The notes beneath the pieces are model-generated. The model worked only from the letters and a program-made list of their open reading frames with translations. It was not told where the DNA came from and did no database searches. 32,000 bases of DNA from Candidatus Harpocratesius repetitus (GTDB lineage Archaea > Asgardarchaeota > Lokiarchaeia > Sigyniarchaeales > Promethearchaeaceae). The stretch spans positions 510,001 through 542,000 of the forward strand of contig JAIZWK010000001.1 of the NCBI GenBank assembly GCA_021498095.1, in the 5' to 3' direction. Shown one piece after another: positions 1-5,689 of this stretch. The translations under genes were made by a program, and so were the position numbers. Each line of letters opens with the position of its first letter. Position 1 is the stretch's first letter.

Positions 1-2
1 GT

Positions 3-821
3 CCTAAACAAGCACAATTATATGCAAAAGTTGTTCGTGAAACCTTGCAGGAAATCGAAAATCTTGAAAAATCTAATATTCAAAGAAAAGGTCTAATTCT
101 GAAGCTATTAACGGCAACTAAACAAATATGTAATCATCCTGTCCAATATCTTTATAAAACGAAACATAAAGTGAAAATTTTACCAAAATCAGCACCCATC
201 AATCAATCCGAAAACCCATCTAATAATCTATCGGAAAAACAATCTGATGATATTGAAATTTCTTATTCAGAATTTTTACATGCATCTCAGAAATTGGAAA
301 GATTGTCGGAAATGGTGGAAGAAGTCTTGGAAGACGGCGAAAAACTATTAATTTTCACTCAATTCAAACAAATGGGCGATTTATTAAAAGAATTTTTAGA
401 ACTAAAATATCACCTTCCAGTCGGATGGTTTCATGGGGGTGTTCCGGAGCGGCAGCGCCAACAATTAGTAGATAATTTCCAATCTACAGCATTAGACTCC
501 ATTCCAATTCTAATCTTGTCTCTTAGAGCAGGAGGAACGGGTTTGAACCTTACGCAAGCATCTACTGTATTTCACTATGATAGATGGTGGAACCCTGCTG
601 TTGAAGATCAAGCCACCGATCGAGCTTATAGGATAGGTCAAAAAAAGACTGTTAATGTGTATAAATTTATCACTACCGGAACAATAGAAGAAAAGATTGA
701 TCAAATGTTGGAAGAAAAGCGGGATCTTGCCGATCGGATTCTTGCTGCAAAAGATGAAACTTGGATCACCGCTCTTTCTAATGACGAATTGAAAGAATTG
801 TTTAGTCTTTCTTATAGCTAA
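3..821 (+). CDS. SNF2/SWI2-family helicase, C-terminal part (5' truncated by the window edge)
   Basis: Frame is open from nt 3 (PKQAQLYAKVVRETLQEIEN...). Helicase-C motifs: LKQICNHP, LIFTQF, LSLRAGGTGLNLT, HYDRWWNPAVEDQATDRAYRIGQ, GTIEEKI. Confidence 0.95.
   Translation, partial: PKQAQLYAKVVRETLQEIENLEKSNIQRKGLILKLLTATKQICNHPVQYLYKTKHKVKILPKSAPINQSENPSNNLSEKQSDDIEISYSEFLHASQKLERLSEMVEEVLEDGEKLLIFTQFKQMGDLLKEFLELKYHLPVGWFHGGVPERQRQQLVDNFQSTALDSIPILILSLRAGGTGLNLTQASTVFHYDRWWNPAVEDQATDRAYRIGQKKTVNVYKFITTGTIEEKIDQMLEEKRDLADRILAAKDETWITALSNDELKELFSLSYS
694..811 (+). repeat. 118-bp direct repeat, copy 1 (3' end of the SNF2 CDS; attL-like)
   Basis: agattgatcaaatg...tttagtctttc matches 3331-3448 at 116/118 nt. 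Both mismatches are synonymous Lys AAG/AAA changes. Confidence 0.97.
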
Positions 822-1115
822 TTTTTTTTAGAAATCGAGATTCTTTCTAAATTTTAAAATCATCAATTTTAATGTCTTTTCTATTTTGATATCCACAATT
901 TATTTTATGTTAAAGAGTGTTCTATTTAATATAATTCTATAAAAATTTACAAATTGTGCATTCATGCATGATTAGGCTTTAATTACTATAATTATATGTA
1001 ATTATAAGAATACAATGCTCTAAATGAAACCTTTATTTCATAATTTGTATAAATTGAATATTAAAATAAATGCTTTTTATGTGAATTAAAAATAATTTTT
1101 TTTAAAAAGCGATTT

Positions 1116-2153
1116 TTATTTACTCAAATCAATTTTTTCTGCCATCATCCGTAGCATGTTCTCTTCGGGAACCTTTTTAAAGGGATCGAGCAAGTATTCA
1201 AATGCCAACTCATAATAAGTGCGAGAAAAATGATCAAAATAATCATCGAAGATTTTTCCAATAGGTATTCTTATAGATCTTGGAGAATATTCTGGAAAGG
1301 GTAAGTTAGGATAATTTAAATCAAAAATAATTGCCTTTTCGTTATAATACAACCATATTTTCTTTGATTTTAGAATGTTATATTGTGAGGCGGTCAACTC
1401 GATAGCAGAGGGGGAATATATTTTGAGTTTTTCGAGATGTGGGGCATTTATAAGAGAGGAAGGTAAAGAGTGTATATTTTTAGAATTGTAAAGAGTGAGT
1501 TCAGAGAATTCAGGCATTAAATTAAAAAGATTTGGTAATTGAGTGATTTTGGGGGTTAATAGATAAAGACCTTTAAGATAATGATGATCTTTAAAGAATT
1601 GCTGTGGAAAGTTTTGGAGTCGATAAAGAATTAAGGTCGAAGCAGTTAATTTTGAAAGACGGTTGAGCCAAGAGGGCATTTCCTTAATGAATTGATCTTC
1701 AAAATAAATATATTTAAGATTGGGTAAGAAGTCAGGTAATTGTTCCAACATTTCATTTAATTCATCCGACGGCTCTTTATGTAAGCCAATCAAATAAATC
1801 GAATGAATATACTCAACTTTTCGATTCGTAGGATTGAATTTATCATAATCTGTTAGAAAAGTAGCACTAACTGTAATAAATGGTAAATCCTTACAATCAA
1901 AGGCATTGGTTTCATCTTCCCAAATTACACGTAATTCTTGCAAATAGGATGCAGTTTGGCGGTCAAGTTCATCAAATGGAGGATGTATATTTGCACAGTA
2001 ATGAGATGGGCGGAAACATAGTCGACGATTACTGTAGATACACTGCATATGCGGATTGTTTTTTTTTGGATTGAAAAGTTTAAGTTTTGGGGCTTCAATC
2101 CAGATTTGTCCCTTAGTTGCTCGATCCCACGCCGATATTTTATGTTTTTTCAT
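1116..2153 (-). CDS. Leucine-rich-repeat protein with an unrecognised N-terminal region
   Basis: 345 aa. Degenerate LRRs such as LPDFLPNLKYIYF, IKEMPSWLNRLSKL, ITQLPNLFNLMPEFSELTL and IHSLPSSLINAPHLEKLKI. ATG start with a TATA-like TTAAATATA upstream on the minus strand. Confidence 0.75.
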   Translation of the reverse strand: MKKHKISAWDRATKGQIWIEAPKLKLFNPKKNNPHMQCIYSNRRLCFRPSHYCANIHPPFDELDRQTASYLQELRVIWEDETNAFDCKDLPFITVSATFLTDYDKFNPTNRKVEYIHSIYLIGLHKEPSDELNEMLEQLPDFLPNLKYIYFEDQFIKEMPSWLNRLSKLTASTLILYRLQNFPQQFFKDHHYLKGLYLLTPKITQLPNLFNLMPEFSELTLYNSKNIHSLPSSLINAPHLEKLKIYSPSAIELTASQYNILKSKKIWLYYNEKAIIFDLNYPNLPFPEYSPRSIRIPIGKIFDDYFDHFSRTYYELAFEYLLDPFKKVPEENMLRMMAEKIDLSK

Positions 2154-2266
2154 GTATACATTACCATTGATTACCTTTTGCTTATTGTAGATATATTTAA
2201 GAAATTCAAATATAAAAATTTGGTTTAAAAAAAGTTAACTCGTAAATCCAATTATTAAATATCGGG

Positions 2267-2813
2267 CTATTTTTAATTACGAAGGATCAATTCACTAACA
2301 CCTCGGTTTGAATTTTTTTCCCCCATTTTTCGTTTGATTGAAATAATCGTTTAATTTCTGAATTATTCCACTCATTAAAGAGAATTTTTGGGCTAAATCG
2401 GTGTGGAACAATGGTATTTCCTAAGATTTCGTGTTAATTTGTGATTGTAATTTATGCCTGAAGTCGCTGTTCTAAACCCTCAGGTGTTTTAGGACCAGTT
2501 TAATGCACGCGAGTCTTAATCCTACTATTAATATTCTCCGCCAGATTATTTGATATAACTTTTGCCACAAATAGTCTTGTATTTCCTTTATAGCAACTGT
2601 AACTGCGGAAAGCACATTTTTTGCTAGTTTGAGATTTTTATAAAAAAGACTATTTTTGCATATCCCTGCTTTTCATTGTCAAAATCTTTAAAATGGTACA
2701 CGCTTTGCTTAAAAATTTCAGAATAATTGCCAATAAATTTTTTTTGAATTAAAATTTTGAAATAATTTAAAAAATAAGGCTTTTCTTAATTGATCCTTCA
2801 TTCTTAAAAATAG
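2267..2813. repeat. 547-bp segment bounded by 26-bp imperfect inverted repeats (MITE/IS remnant or invertible segment)
   Basis: 2267-2292 ctatttttaattacgaaggatcaatt versus the reverse complement of 2788-2813 ctatttttaagaatgaaggatcaatt: 23/26 identical, with a perfect inner 12 bp. Confidence 0.55.
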
Positions 2814-3330
2814 TCGGTTTCTATTTAACAGAAATTAATTTCCATTTAAGCACTTGAAATGGACAACAAAAAACCACTTTTTCCATTCTGATCTCTGAGA
2901 ATTTGTTCTGCCTTCGGCTTTTGAAGGGAATTATTTTTGTAACTTGAGTAACTGAACTGAAGGAAAGATTTCTAGAATTAAGCGAATCCGACGTGGTAAT
3001 TTATCAAGAAAAATGCTAAGAACCGAATCAAAAAGTACAAAAGGGATTTAAGATTATAGATTATCGCCAACCACTCTACAATATTCCCTAAAAGAGGTCT
3101 TAAATCCTATGATTAATAATACTGAGCACTTAAAAGAATTTAAGGAATTCATCAATCTTTTTGATTGAATAATATTATATTTTATAATGATCAAAATCAA
3201 TTAAGGAAGTAAAAAATCTGAAAAATTTAACTATAAATCATTCAAAGACAAGCTGTTGACTTTTAAAAAAATTAACATAAAATTAAATAAAATAGAAGTC
3301 TACTTAATTGCGAATAATAATATTTCCTAT

Positions 3331-3470
3331 AGATTGATCAAATGTTGGAAGAAAAACGGGATCTTGCCGATCGGATTCTTGCTGCAAAGGATGAAACTTG
3401 GATCACCGCTCTTTCTAATGACGAATTGAAAGAATTGTTTAGTCTTTCGCAGATTGAGGAGGGATATTGA
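3331..3470 (+). pseudogene. Displaced original 3' end of the SNF2 gene (repeat copy 2, 3331-3448, plus tail ...FSLSQIEEGY*)
   Basis: Encodes IDQMLEEKRDLADRILAAKDETWITALSNDELKELFSLSQIEEGY*. Its TGA (3468-3470) overlaps the SWIM ATG (3470), preceded by an SD-like GAGGAGGG. Confidence 0.85.
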
Positions 3471-4438
3471 TGCAACGTCGAACCAAAGAATCTAGAAAGC
3501 CAAAAAAAACACAAAATGGCCATAATTCAAGAAATGGACATAAAACAAGAAAAGGTCGTTATTTAGGAAATAATCGAAACGTACGGAAAGAAGTGCAAGA
3601 AATCAAGAGAGAATTGCACGGATTTGCAAAAACTAAATGGGGACAAATTTGGGTGGATCATATGTTAGAGTATGGTCGTCCGTTTCGAATGCAAAGAGGT
3701 ATTCGCTATGCACAAGAAGAAAGAGTATCTAATATCACAATTTCTCCAGGAATGATCTTTGCAACAGTTCAAGGAACTGCTCCAACCCCCTATTTAGTAA
3801 AAGTCCGATTTGAAACAATACCTGAAGATGTTTGGTATCAAATTGCCATGAAAATTGCAGAAAAAGCCTATTACACGATAAAATTATTAGAAAATACCAT
3901 TCCGGAGGATTTTGAATCAATTTTTGAAGAAGTGGGATATGAATTGTTTCCAGATCCAACAACAAGTTTAAATGCATCATGTTCTTGTCCTGATAAAGAA
4001 ATTCCTTGTAAACACATAGCTGCGACAATTTTATATGTTGCTCGTGTATTTGATTATGATCCATTCCTCTTACTAAAATTACGGGGAAAAGCTCGTGATG
4101 AATTATTACAAACGATTAAAAATGCACGAAGTTGCGCAAATGAACCAATTACAATTTCTGTAAAAAAGATTCGAGAAATGGTTAATATTGCAGATAAAAG
4201 TTTTGAAGTGCCAATTCTTCCAGTTCAAGAATTAAACGTAAATTCATTCTTAAAACCAACAACTCCCTATAATATTGGTTTTCGATTTTTAAAACCAGGA
4301 ACTGATATAAAAACATTAGATACGCTAAACTTGGCTCCAAATTTAGAAAAACCGGATCAATTTTATCAAGTTTTTCGAGACTTGTATTTAGTAGTCTCCA
4401 AAAAAGCTTATGGAATGGCAAAAAAATTAAATGAATAA
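3470..4438 (+). CDS. SWIM zinc-finger protein (SNF2-associated type)
   Basis: SWIM motif CSCPDKEIPCKH. Family-like segments WGQIWVDHM, RMQRGIRYA, ATVQGT..PY, DPFLLLKLRG. Basic N-terminal tail. ATG at 3470 preferred over TTG at 3467. Confidence 0.9.
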   Translation: MQRRTKESRKPKKTQNGHNSRNGHKTRKGRYLGNNRNVRKEVQEIKRELHGFAKTKWGQIWVDHMLEYGRPFRMQRGIRYAQEERVSNITISPGMIFATVQGTAPTPYLVKVRFETIPEDVWYQIAMKIAEKAYYTIKLLENTIPEDFESIFEEVGYELFPDPTTSLNASCSCPDKEIPCKHIAATILYVARVFDYDPFLLLKLRGKARDELLQTIKNARSCANEPITISVKKIREMVNIADKSFEVPILPVQELNVNSFLKPTTPYNIGFRFLKPGTDIKTLDTLNLAPNLEKPDQFYQVFRDLYLVVSKKAYGMAKKLNE

Positions 4439-4840
4439 TATATTTTTAAAACGAAAAATATTGTAAGAGGGTATTTTAAATTTCAAAGATTCGAAGTTTT
4501 TCATTTCATCATCTTAATTCTCCCGACTCAAATCCAAAATATCCTTCCTTATTTTTTGTCGATTTTACCAAGGGCTAAATTCAAGATATGCAAATCAAAA
4601 ATTATAATAAAATCGACTTCAGATTGAAGAATTTATAAATATGATGGTATATTTTTAACAAATTCTTTGAAAAAATCGAGTTCGACAAAAAAAGAATTGT
4701 GATATTTTAGATTTAAGTCGGAAATATATGAATGATATTCAAAAAAGCGTTTAAATTAAAAAAGATGAAAGATCCTCGTAAAAATGAGAAAAATATCGAA
4801 AAAATGAAAATATGAAAGAAATTGGATTGGATTGATTAGA

Positions 4841-5521
4841 TTAGATATAAAATGAATTATCGCTAACTTTTACATTTTCCCTTATATTTTGGGAATTCAA
4901 AATTTGTGCTCGATTTCGCATATCCTTAACAATTTTATCGTGAGTTTCCAAAATATCAACAAATAATCCACCTTTTAATAAACTTAAGAAAAGGTCAAAA
5001 TTCAAAGTTCGATGAGCTAATCGCGTATTTACTAAAAGATAAGCCAATAAATCGATTTCACCTTGGACCTGCGTCATCATTGCCATAAAACTATCTTGAT
5101 CTTCTATTGCATTGCTTTCTGCCACTTCTGCTAACCTCATTTTGCAAAAATCGTAAAATCCGGACTCTAAAATAGCATTTAATATTAATTTTTTATTTGC
5201 ATGGGAGAAGAGCAGTTGATCTGAACGTGTAAACCCAGAAATTGTTTCATCAATTGCCACATTTAGGTAATCCATTAATGAATTCAATGCTTTTTGGTAG
5301 TTAAAGAAATTGCTTACATCGATTATTTGAACATTTTCATCTTCTTCATTATTATCTTTATCATCATTGACTTCAGGATTATCATTTTCTTTTCTATCTT
5401 TATTTTCTATTCTATCCTTATTTTCTTCTTTATCTTCATTTTCTTTGCGATTCCTATCTTTATAATTATAATTATTTTTCTTTTTATTAGATTGCCCATT
5501 TTCTTTCTTATCTTTATTCAC
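4841..5521 (-). CDS. Hypothetical protein with a low-complexity K/N/D/E N-terminus and a helical C-terminal domain; start uncertain
   Basis: 226-aa ORF with a GTG start and protein-like C-terminal about 160 aa. No recognised motif. Confidence 0.65.
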   Translation of the reverse strand: MNKDKKENGQSNKKKNNYNYKDRNRKENEDKEENKDRIENKDRKENDNPEVNDDKDNNEEDENVQIIDVSNFFNYQKALNSLMDYLNVAIDETISGFTRSDQLLFSHANKKLILNAILESGFYDFCKMRLAEVAESNAIEDQDSFMAMMTQVQGEIDLLAYLLVNTRLAHRTLNFDLFLSLLKGGLFVDILETHDKIVKDMRNRAQILNSQNIRENVKVSDNSFYI

Positions 5522-5689
5522 TTTTTCATTACCATTTTCATTTTATGATATTTATTCGAGTTCCAATGCTCTTAAAGAAAGAATGCTCCCCTTTATACCT
5601 TTTTGGTGAATTTAATCAGATTCAATTAATGAAATAGAACTCGAATAAAAATAAGATAAAAAAGCACAAAATTTGCACTCTTTGCTATA

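Follow-up and report, generated by a model that had tools for sequence, protein, structure and literature searches.

How does a gene-sized piece of accessory DNA come to lie within the last codons of a conserved gene, with part of that gene duplicated on its far side and no integrase at hand? This question is raised by a locus in the Asgard archaeon Candidatus Harpocratesius repetitus, at the start of a window of 32,000 nucleotides (contig JAIZWK010000001.1, positions 510,001 to 542,000; coordinates below are those of the window unless given as genome positions). Here the 3' end of a gene for an SNF2 helicase and the gene of its partner, a SWIM zinc-finger protein, are separated by 2.6 kb. We think it probable that the locus is the scar of a single insertion of ~2.5 kb of accessory DNA into the last SNF2 codons, made without a dedicated integrase and belonging to the class called "insertion with long target duplication" (Nobusato et al. 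2000, as cited in Furuta, Abe & Kobayashi 2010, Nucleic Acids Res 38:2428, PMC2853133). The features on which the argument turns are as follows.

1..821, plus strand: SNF2 helicase gene, 3' part (whole gene at genome positions 507480-510821)
694..811, plus strand: repeat copy 1 (proximal), the working SNF2 3' segment
812..831, plus strand: new SNF2 tail of two codons (Tyr-Ser), with TAA at 819-821 and a run of eight T (T8) at 824-831
812..3330: insert of 2,519 bp, missing at the SNF2-SWIM junction in 19 of 19 relatives
3331..3448, plus strand: repeat copy 2 (distal), the displaced, ancestral SNF2 3' segment
3342..3470, plus strand: remnant open reading frame (ORF) of 42 codons, from an ATG in copy 2 to the ancestral tail QIEEGY*
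3470..4438, plus strand: SWIM zinc-finger protein gene, 322 amino acids (aa), intact, the conserved partner of SNF2

The two copies form a direct repeat without gaps, identical at 116 of 118 positions (98.3%) and offset by 2,637 bp, and our re-measurement agrees with a preliminary description made from the sequence of the window. Both edges of the repeat are sharp, with similarity ending abruptly. There are two copies and no third in the closed genome (4.36 Mb in a single contig, 31% GC), which excludes chance. The mismatches (719 G vs 3356 A and 752 A vs 3391 G) both fall in the third position of Lys codons (AAG/AAA) and are synonymous, again as described. In copy 1, the SNF2 ORF (1,113 aa, with domains DUF3670, SNF2-rel_dom, and Helicase_C) closes as ...FSLSYS*, its stop codon lying two codons past the repeat. 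Copy 2 reads ...FSLSQIEEGY*, and its TGA at 3468-3470 shares a base with the SWIM ATG at 3470; both endings had been read correctly at the outset. The remnant 42-codon ORF retains this TGATG stop/start overlap with SWIM, and upstream of it an in-frame TAG spans the junction at 3330-3332. The T8 run behind the new SNF2 stop looks like an archaeal terminator. As genome background, T8 runs begin within 15 nt of 0.6% of positions, and runs of T7 or longer come after 7.5% of long ORFs.

Could the structure be an artefact in which two strain haplotypes were joined during assembly, as the preliminary description had itself cautioned? The repeat exceeds the k-mer of short-read assembly, and the contigs of the public runs do break inside it. 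Against this, the chromosome is one closed contig, and short-read contigs from two public runs span all four junctions without differences (run X2, 674-907; run X1, 1-749, 782-2290, 3078-3386, and 3419-4493), two of the X1 contigs having just 30 bases on one side of the junction. These contigs tie each repeat variant to its own flank, and depth is even across the locus (flank 21, insert 20.6, flank 24.4). The two runs are probably the source sample of the assembly, and their agreement is a matter of internal consistency, not independent support. On this evidence we regard a joining of haplotypes as extremely improbable. The run data are assembled contigs, in which empty-site or circular molecules would not be visible given the breaks inside the repeat; they contain no joint that jumps 2,637 bp and no junction of a circle. 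Four sequencing runs are on record, none of them recorded as RNA. In run X3, a metagenome of marine sediment, parts of SNF2 and SWIM are covered at ~2x with 0-1 differences and the unique parts of the insert not at all, the coverage being too thin for calling an empty site. A joint in X3 from 160 to 4097 was disregarded, as one of its sides has 21 letters.

The direction of the event was read from relatives. The SWIM orthologue was sought in 61 genomes of the same order (this one included); 28 others match, and the best 19 loci were read. In all 19, both same-genus genomes included, the SNF2 3' end directly precedes SWIM, and in most same-family genomes the SNF2 stop overlaps, abuts, or lies one base off the SWIM start (TAATG, TGATG, and TAA-ATG). 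One same-genus SNF2 tail, FSLSQTTEVY*, resembles the FSLSQIEEGY* of copy 2. The two copies are 98.3% alike, whereas the orthologous DNA of the relatives is clearly diverged over the repeat segment. As the empty arrangement is found in 19 of 19 loci and the copies are so similar, copy 2 is the ancestral SNF2 end, with its stop overlapping the SWIM start, and the 2,519 bp were gained after the split from the sampled members of the genus. The comparison upholds what had been proposed from the window alone, namely that copy 2 was the original end of a coupled SNF2-SWIM pair and that an insertion came between the two genes. This insertion is lineage-specific, its proximal copy supplying the new, shorter SNF2 end. 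The six-residue tail itself varies in length and sequence among the relatives. The SWIM protein is not confined to archaea, having relatives 30-31% identical in the cyanobacteria Coleofasciculus and Aphanothece.

The insert is seen in this genome alone and has a GC content of 0.22-0.35, similar to the genome value of 0.31. It is a mosaic of an LRR (leucine-rich repeat) gene, a miniature inverted-repeat transposable element (MITE), and a gene fragment. To the right of an AT-rich spacer of 304 bp, which makes up its left part, it contains the following.

1116..2153, minus strand: gene for an orphan LRR-domain protein, 345 aa
2265..2815: MITE-like element, 551 bp, with terminal inverted repeats of ~26 bp
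2828..3165, plus strand: truncated 5' 338 bp of a 2.0-kb gene unit (upstream region and ~100 bp of coding sequence)
3166..3330: right end of the insert, unique AT-rich DNA of 165 bp with no match elsewhere in the genome

The LRR protein, encoded by the sole ORF of at least 100 aa within the insert, has four paralogues in this genome (38-40% identical), none of which has flanking repeats, and a profile built from these five sequences matches LRR proteins in the PDB with E = 1e-16. The 60 relatives give weak LRR matches only, and among 5.8 billion proteins it matches only itself. The MITE belongs to a family of >30 genome copies that are 76-98% identical to the copy in the insert. It derives through internal deletion from a 1.6-kb parent insertion sequence at genome positions 2063709-2065307, which carries a 460-aa ORF that is weakly DDE/IS240-like (E = 9e-5, under the Pfam cut-off). 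The 2.0-kb unit consists of 238 bp of upstream DNA and a 584-aa ORF of unknown family, without terminal inverted repeats; full copies lie at genome positions 1590133-1592145 and 2994310-2996323 (95% identity), and the third, truncated copy is the one in the window. Beside one of the full units lies a gene whose 456-aa product has a weak match to OLD-like TOPRIM. The 584-aa protein has no Pfam match, and neither PADLOC nor PHROGs gave a hit for three proteins of neighbouring repeat units (584 aa, 456 aa, and 410 aa).

Multi-copy repeat makes up 36% of the insert, as against 4.8% of the genome, and both the MITE and the truncated repeat unit lie near its right end. These features would suit a transposon-mediated origin, in which the MITE, its parent insertion sequence, or the 2-kb unit carried flanking DNA to the site by composite or one-ended transposition. 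However, no terminal inverted repeats are present at the insert ends (812 and 3330), the MITE, which has terminal repeats of its own, lies inside the insert and stops 515 bp short of its right edge, and terminal inverted repeats are missing from the 2-kb unit too. Moreover, a duplication of 118 bp far exceeds the target duplications usual for DDE transposases, which are <10 bp (PMC2853133), and long duplications of variable length are not found around other copies of the repeat families checked (the cargo families of the actin and lacZ scars). We give this explanation very little credence. Slightly less implausible, though still improbable in our view, is a plain local rearrangement, whereby the SNF2 end was duplicated together with neighbouring DNA and deletions followed, the insert then being reshuffled local sequence. 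Duplicated gene fragments do occur in this genome, as a Cas6 fragment 2.2 kb downstream of the intact gene illustrates. Yet the insert matches nothing near the locus, its matches in the genome being limited to the MITE and the 338-bp fragment; SWIM directly follows SNF2 in the relatives, and the LRR gene is therefore no old neighbour; and several extra steps would be required.

Is the SNF2 locus alone of its kind in this genome? A genome-wide search for local direct repeats that occur nowhere else (40-600 bp long, at least 85% identical, 0.4-25 kb apart, and with no more than 2 genome copies) yielded 21 pairs, and no unique direct repeats were found at distances of 20-150 kb. Eight of the 21 pairs overlap the 3' end of a gene of at least 100 aa, and about five overlap a gene 5' end. 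The eight 3'-end pairs are listed here by the genome position of the first copy.

63606: PUA-domain gene, repeat of 108 bp
342390: ferredoxin-domain gene, with a MazF-like toxin in the insert, repeat of 55 bp
378603: gene of 1,168 aa, repeat of 157 bp
510694: SNF2, repeat of 118 bp
2054696: gene of 227 aa, repeat of 319 bp
2260749: gene of 377 aa, repeat of 249 bp
2565756: gene of 858 aa, repeat of 298 bp
3491644: gene of 304 aa, repeat of 106 bp

In the 3'-end pairs, the intact gene holds one copy, and the other is displaced past 1.6-8 kb of accessory genes; in the five or so 5'-end pairs, it is the distal copy that retains the intact gene. The seven sister 3'-end repeats are 87-99.6% identical. 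In all, the genome seems to contain about 13 similar scars (8 at 3' ends and ~5 at 5' ends), with repeats of 55-319 bp derived from unrelated gene ends, and no motif is common to the repeat edges. No recombinase was found in the inserts sampled with Pfam, which come from most but not all of the scars; among the sampled inserts, only that at genome position 3491775 shows a DDE transposase. Like the SNF2 insert, the inserts of the scars are rich in multi-copy repeat. One of the 5'-end pairs encloses a Type II restriction-modification (R-M) cassette, consisting of an N6/N4 DNA methylase and a restriction enzyme (PADLOC E = 2e-42), between direct repeats at genome positions 117401-120366. Its repeats (117401/120238, 129 bp, 98.4% identical) are copies of a segment that comprises the promoter of a small ribbon-helix-helix-like gene together with the initial 74 nt of that gene. 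The PUA and R-M scars were also compared with the same-genus genomes by DNA and tblastx searches, which revealed no synteny past the target gene, and these two sites are not polarised.

In the youngest of the scars, the actin scar, the repeat is 99.6% identical, while no paralogue elsewhere in the genome exceeds ~91% identity to the cargo, and this cargo therefore seems to have been imported, not copied within the genome. Repeat differences pooled over the eight 3'-end scars number 20/15/41 by codon position, 32 of them synonymous and 44 non-synonymous. This is the pattern expected from decay of the displaced copy after the event, under crossover or in-place duplication alike. The cargo of two sister scars (genome positions 2260998-2265221 and 378760-380972) belongs to multi-copy families of ~12 and ~4 copies, 82-92% identical; homology with the other copies begins 0-27 nt from the repeat/insert junction, and those copies have no flanking repeats. 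Two candidates were set aside. A supposed tRNA end at genome position 4185406 was a likeness seen by eye, and ARAGORN (introns allowed) and Rfam find no tRNA there. The Cas6 pair (genome positions 189039/191253) was rejected as a scar, as the intact Cas6 keeps its true C terminus and the copied fragment is internal. This fragment of 355 bp was copied 2.2 kb downstream, past a gene for an AAA_14/DUF4143 ATPase (genome positions 189039-191605).

What the SNF2 locus presents, then, is one insertion with a duplicated 118-bp target segment and an insert devoid of recombinase genes, and it has many parallel cases at unrelated sites. That like scars occur at unrelated genes without an edge motif suggests a general process, independent of recombinases and not specific to SNF2, and we infer that such a route lies behind these scars.

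This departs from the preliminary description, which took the locus for a site-specific element using SNF2 as its chromosomal attachment site (attB). It was right that no integrase lies inside; Pfam, NCBIfam, PADLOC, and PHROGs identify no recombinase, transposase, phage, or plasmid genes in the insert. The genome as a whole has a single match to the tyrosine recombinase family PF00589, at 2.287 Mb and 1.8 Mb from the site, and 12 matches to the serine recombinase family PF00239, in frames of 124-257 aa, the nearest ~170 kb from the site. An attachment site in repeated use might be expected to hold different cargo, or integrase-bearing versions, in related genomes; the survey proposed for this found no cargo of any kind between SNF2 and SWIM in the 19 relatives read. 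Nor is such use peculiar to SNF2, given the dozen or so other genes of unrelated sequence that bear a like scar without a common edge motif. The 8-bp palindrome reported at the left edge of the repeat, TTGATCAA, is indeed present at 697-704 and 3334-3341, but the importance attached to it does not hold. It has 409 copies in the genome, and 8-bp palindromes start at 0.58% of positions, such that one near one of two edges is not unusual. It encodes a conserved Ile-Asp-Gln, and in the two same-genus genomes the corresponding DNA is ATCGATCAA and ATCGACCAA; the palindrome is not conserved at the DNA level and is not significant. On our reading, the insertion took place without an integrase of its own and at a gene that is not favoured for attachment; there is no evidence for a mobile element targeting SNF2, and the site-specific reading is not supported.

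A version of it in which the element has decayed deserves separate consideration. Some integrative elements, such as e14 and phage 21 at icd of E. coli, provide a protein gene with a replacement 3' end, and archaeal elements target tRNA genes. Likewise, the repeat at SNF2 is derived from the 3' end of the gene that was entered, which the element-side copy keeps closed. By analogy, an integrative element whose own attachment site (attP) carried a replacement SNF2 3' end may have recombined near the left edge of the repeat, its integrase and most of its genes being lost later through internal deletions. The proximal copy does give SNF2 a closed ORF followed by the T8 terminator-like run while the distal copy retains the old end, both differences are synonymous, as expected of an element-borne allele, and the truncated fragment at 2828-3165 implies that the insert underwent at least one truncation. 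In four sister scars, furthermore, the repeat ends 1-4 nt past the stop codon, as attachment sites at gene ends do. Several observations count against such an element. Unlike e14, phage 21, and the tRNA-targeting elements, the SNF2 insert has no integrase, phage, or plasmid genes and no recombinase remnant, the sole tyrosine recombinase match lying elsewhere, and its site is not reused in relatives, being empty in 19 of 19. The LRR gene has no relative outside this genome. Each of the ~13 integrase-free scars would need to have decayed independently, and they share no core motif, the palindrome being neither significant nor conserved. Finally, the replacement end does not preserve the tail of the protein, losing six residues, and breaks the coupling with SWIM. 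We consider a decayed element unlikely, though worth keeping in mind.

The bacterial precedents fit considerably better. In those cases, R-M genes with no other mobile element lie between direct repeats of 46-423 bp, whose sequence occurs once where a related genome has the empty site; such units can amplify via their repeats (PMC2853133). The authors set long target duplication apart from site-specific integration and suggest that it is linked with double-strand breaks; none of the cases that their screen retained is archaeal (PMC2853133). The SNF2 scar resembles these cases in several respects. Its repeat is longer than 30 bp and unique in the genome (118 bp, two copies). Both flanks are adjacent, with one SNF2 end, in two same-genus genomes and 17 further relatives. 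The insert of 2,519 bp is smaller than 20 kb and has a non-autonomous MITE but no integrase, transposase, or phage genes. Repeat length varies by locus in both settings (46-423 bp in the paper vs 55-319 bp in this genome), and the R-M cassette scar of this genome, with its 129-bp repeat, is a textbook case. The differences are that the host is an Asgard archaeon, that the cargo is an LRR gene, not an R-M system, and that the genomes in which the empty site is documented belong to other species of the genus and family, none of them being a same-species strain. Judged by its structure and apart from the type of cargo, the SNF2 scar appears to belong to this class. It is an archaeal, non-R-M case of a known kind of insertion whose mechanism is unsolved, and there are about a dozen in the genome.

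How might the insertion have taken place? As the relatives show, SNF2 at first ended in ...FSLSQIEEGY*, its stop overlapping the SWIM start, and the order seen today is SNF2 body, copy 1, insert, copy 2, old tail, and SWIM. Two variants of a recombinase-free route can be envisaged. In the first, DNA of a close relative in which the SNF2 3' segment was already joined to the cargo would circularise and enter through one homologous crossover within the 118 bp, carried out by host recombination proteins (a Campbell-type "pop-in"). In the second, the 118 bp would be duplicated in place while the cargo was joined, either because staggered breaks were filled in or because replication switched its template to the cargo and returned 118 bp behind the departure point. 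Campbell-type single crossover is the "pop-in" step of pop-in/pop-out genetics in archaea and bacteria. The SNF2 locus is similar in that integrated DNA lies between two homologous copies, can be lost by recombination between them, and involves no site-specific recombinase; it differs in being a natural event with just 118 bp of homology and a circular donor and source that are hypothetical.

At this locus we slightly favour crossover over in-place duplication, because both differences are synonymous and because copy 1, the functional copy, has the derived base at 752 and possibly also at 719, a position on which the two outgroups differ. In-place duplication would predict changes at all codon positions and a rate some three times higher in copy 2, which is free of constraint, than in copy 1. 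The evidence is weak, amounting by a rough estimate to a likelihood ratio of ~3-8. Under either variant, at least one truncation, that of the gene fragment at 2828-3165, would have followed, and the arrival of the MITE may be either older or younger than the insertion.

Several points weigh against an insertion with long target duplication as just described. Two differences cannot separate crossover from in-place duplication. A same-species empty site, a donor, and a circular form were not found in two metagenome scans and the run contigs (the scans gave 0 matches to a degenerate repeat pattern and 0 to an exact pattern for the ancestral tail/SWIM junction), and the direction of insertion rests on genus-level and remoter relatives. 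In addition, the tidy gene ends, seen in the sister repeats that stop just past a stop codon and here in the new stop with its T8 run, are unexplained by either variant without selection. Tidy gene ends are a hallmark of adapted integrative elements. They keep the decayed-element explanation alive as a minority possibility, the alternative being selection for harmless junctions. Lastly, the enzymology of long target duplication is unsolved even in bacteria.

Insertion with long target duplication could have a further side. It is conceivable, if rather doubtful, that lokiarchaeial accessory genes move as recombinase-free cassettes, each equipped with a captured gene end that acts as a portable attachment site. 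A circle of repeat plus cargo would be released when the two copies recombine homologously, and it would enter the empty site of a related cell by a single crossover, gene ends serving as address labels; the dozen or so scars would then be footprints, and the SNF2 scar one cassette caught in place. At SNF2 itself, recombination between the copies would, in principle, restore the SNF2-SWIM pair and free a circle of 2,637 bp, an excision of which the accessible data give no sign.

For the two host genes, SNF2 appears to have lost its six-residue tail, and SWIM its stop/start coupling to SNF2. If transcribed, the remnant 42-codon ORF could still couple translation to SWIM. Taken alone, this is a small event, through which a helicase gene received a strain-specific LRR gene at its 3' side and was uncoupled from its SWIM partner. 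What gives the scar its value is that it is a clean, well-polarised example of accessory gene gain in an Asgard genome, the ancestral state being fixed by 19 relatives. Entry without integrases via long gene-end duplications has so far been described for bacterial R-M systems, and a closed genome with about a dozen scars of differing ages is one in which the mechanism might be worked out. It also follows that, in searches for horizontal transfer in Asgard archaea, the absence of a nearby integrase does not mean that a gene was not recently acquired.

Elsewhere in the window, Rfam and tRNA scans found no RNA gene. The window also encodes SecY with a Sec61-type plug and an EMC3-like protein, which together with the relatives put the genome in the Lokiarchaeia. 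A tandem repeat with an 18-nt period and at least 6 units lies at 5365-5544, mostly within a 226-aa ORF on the minus strand (4841-5521). This ORF has no Pfam match, and its tandem repeat probably encodes a charged hexapeptide repeat.

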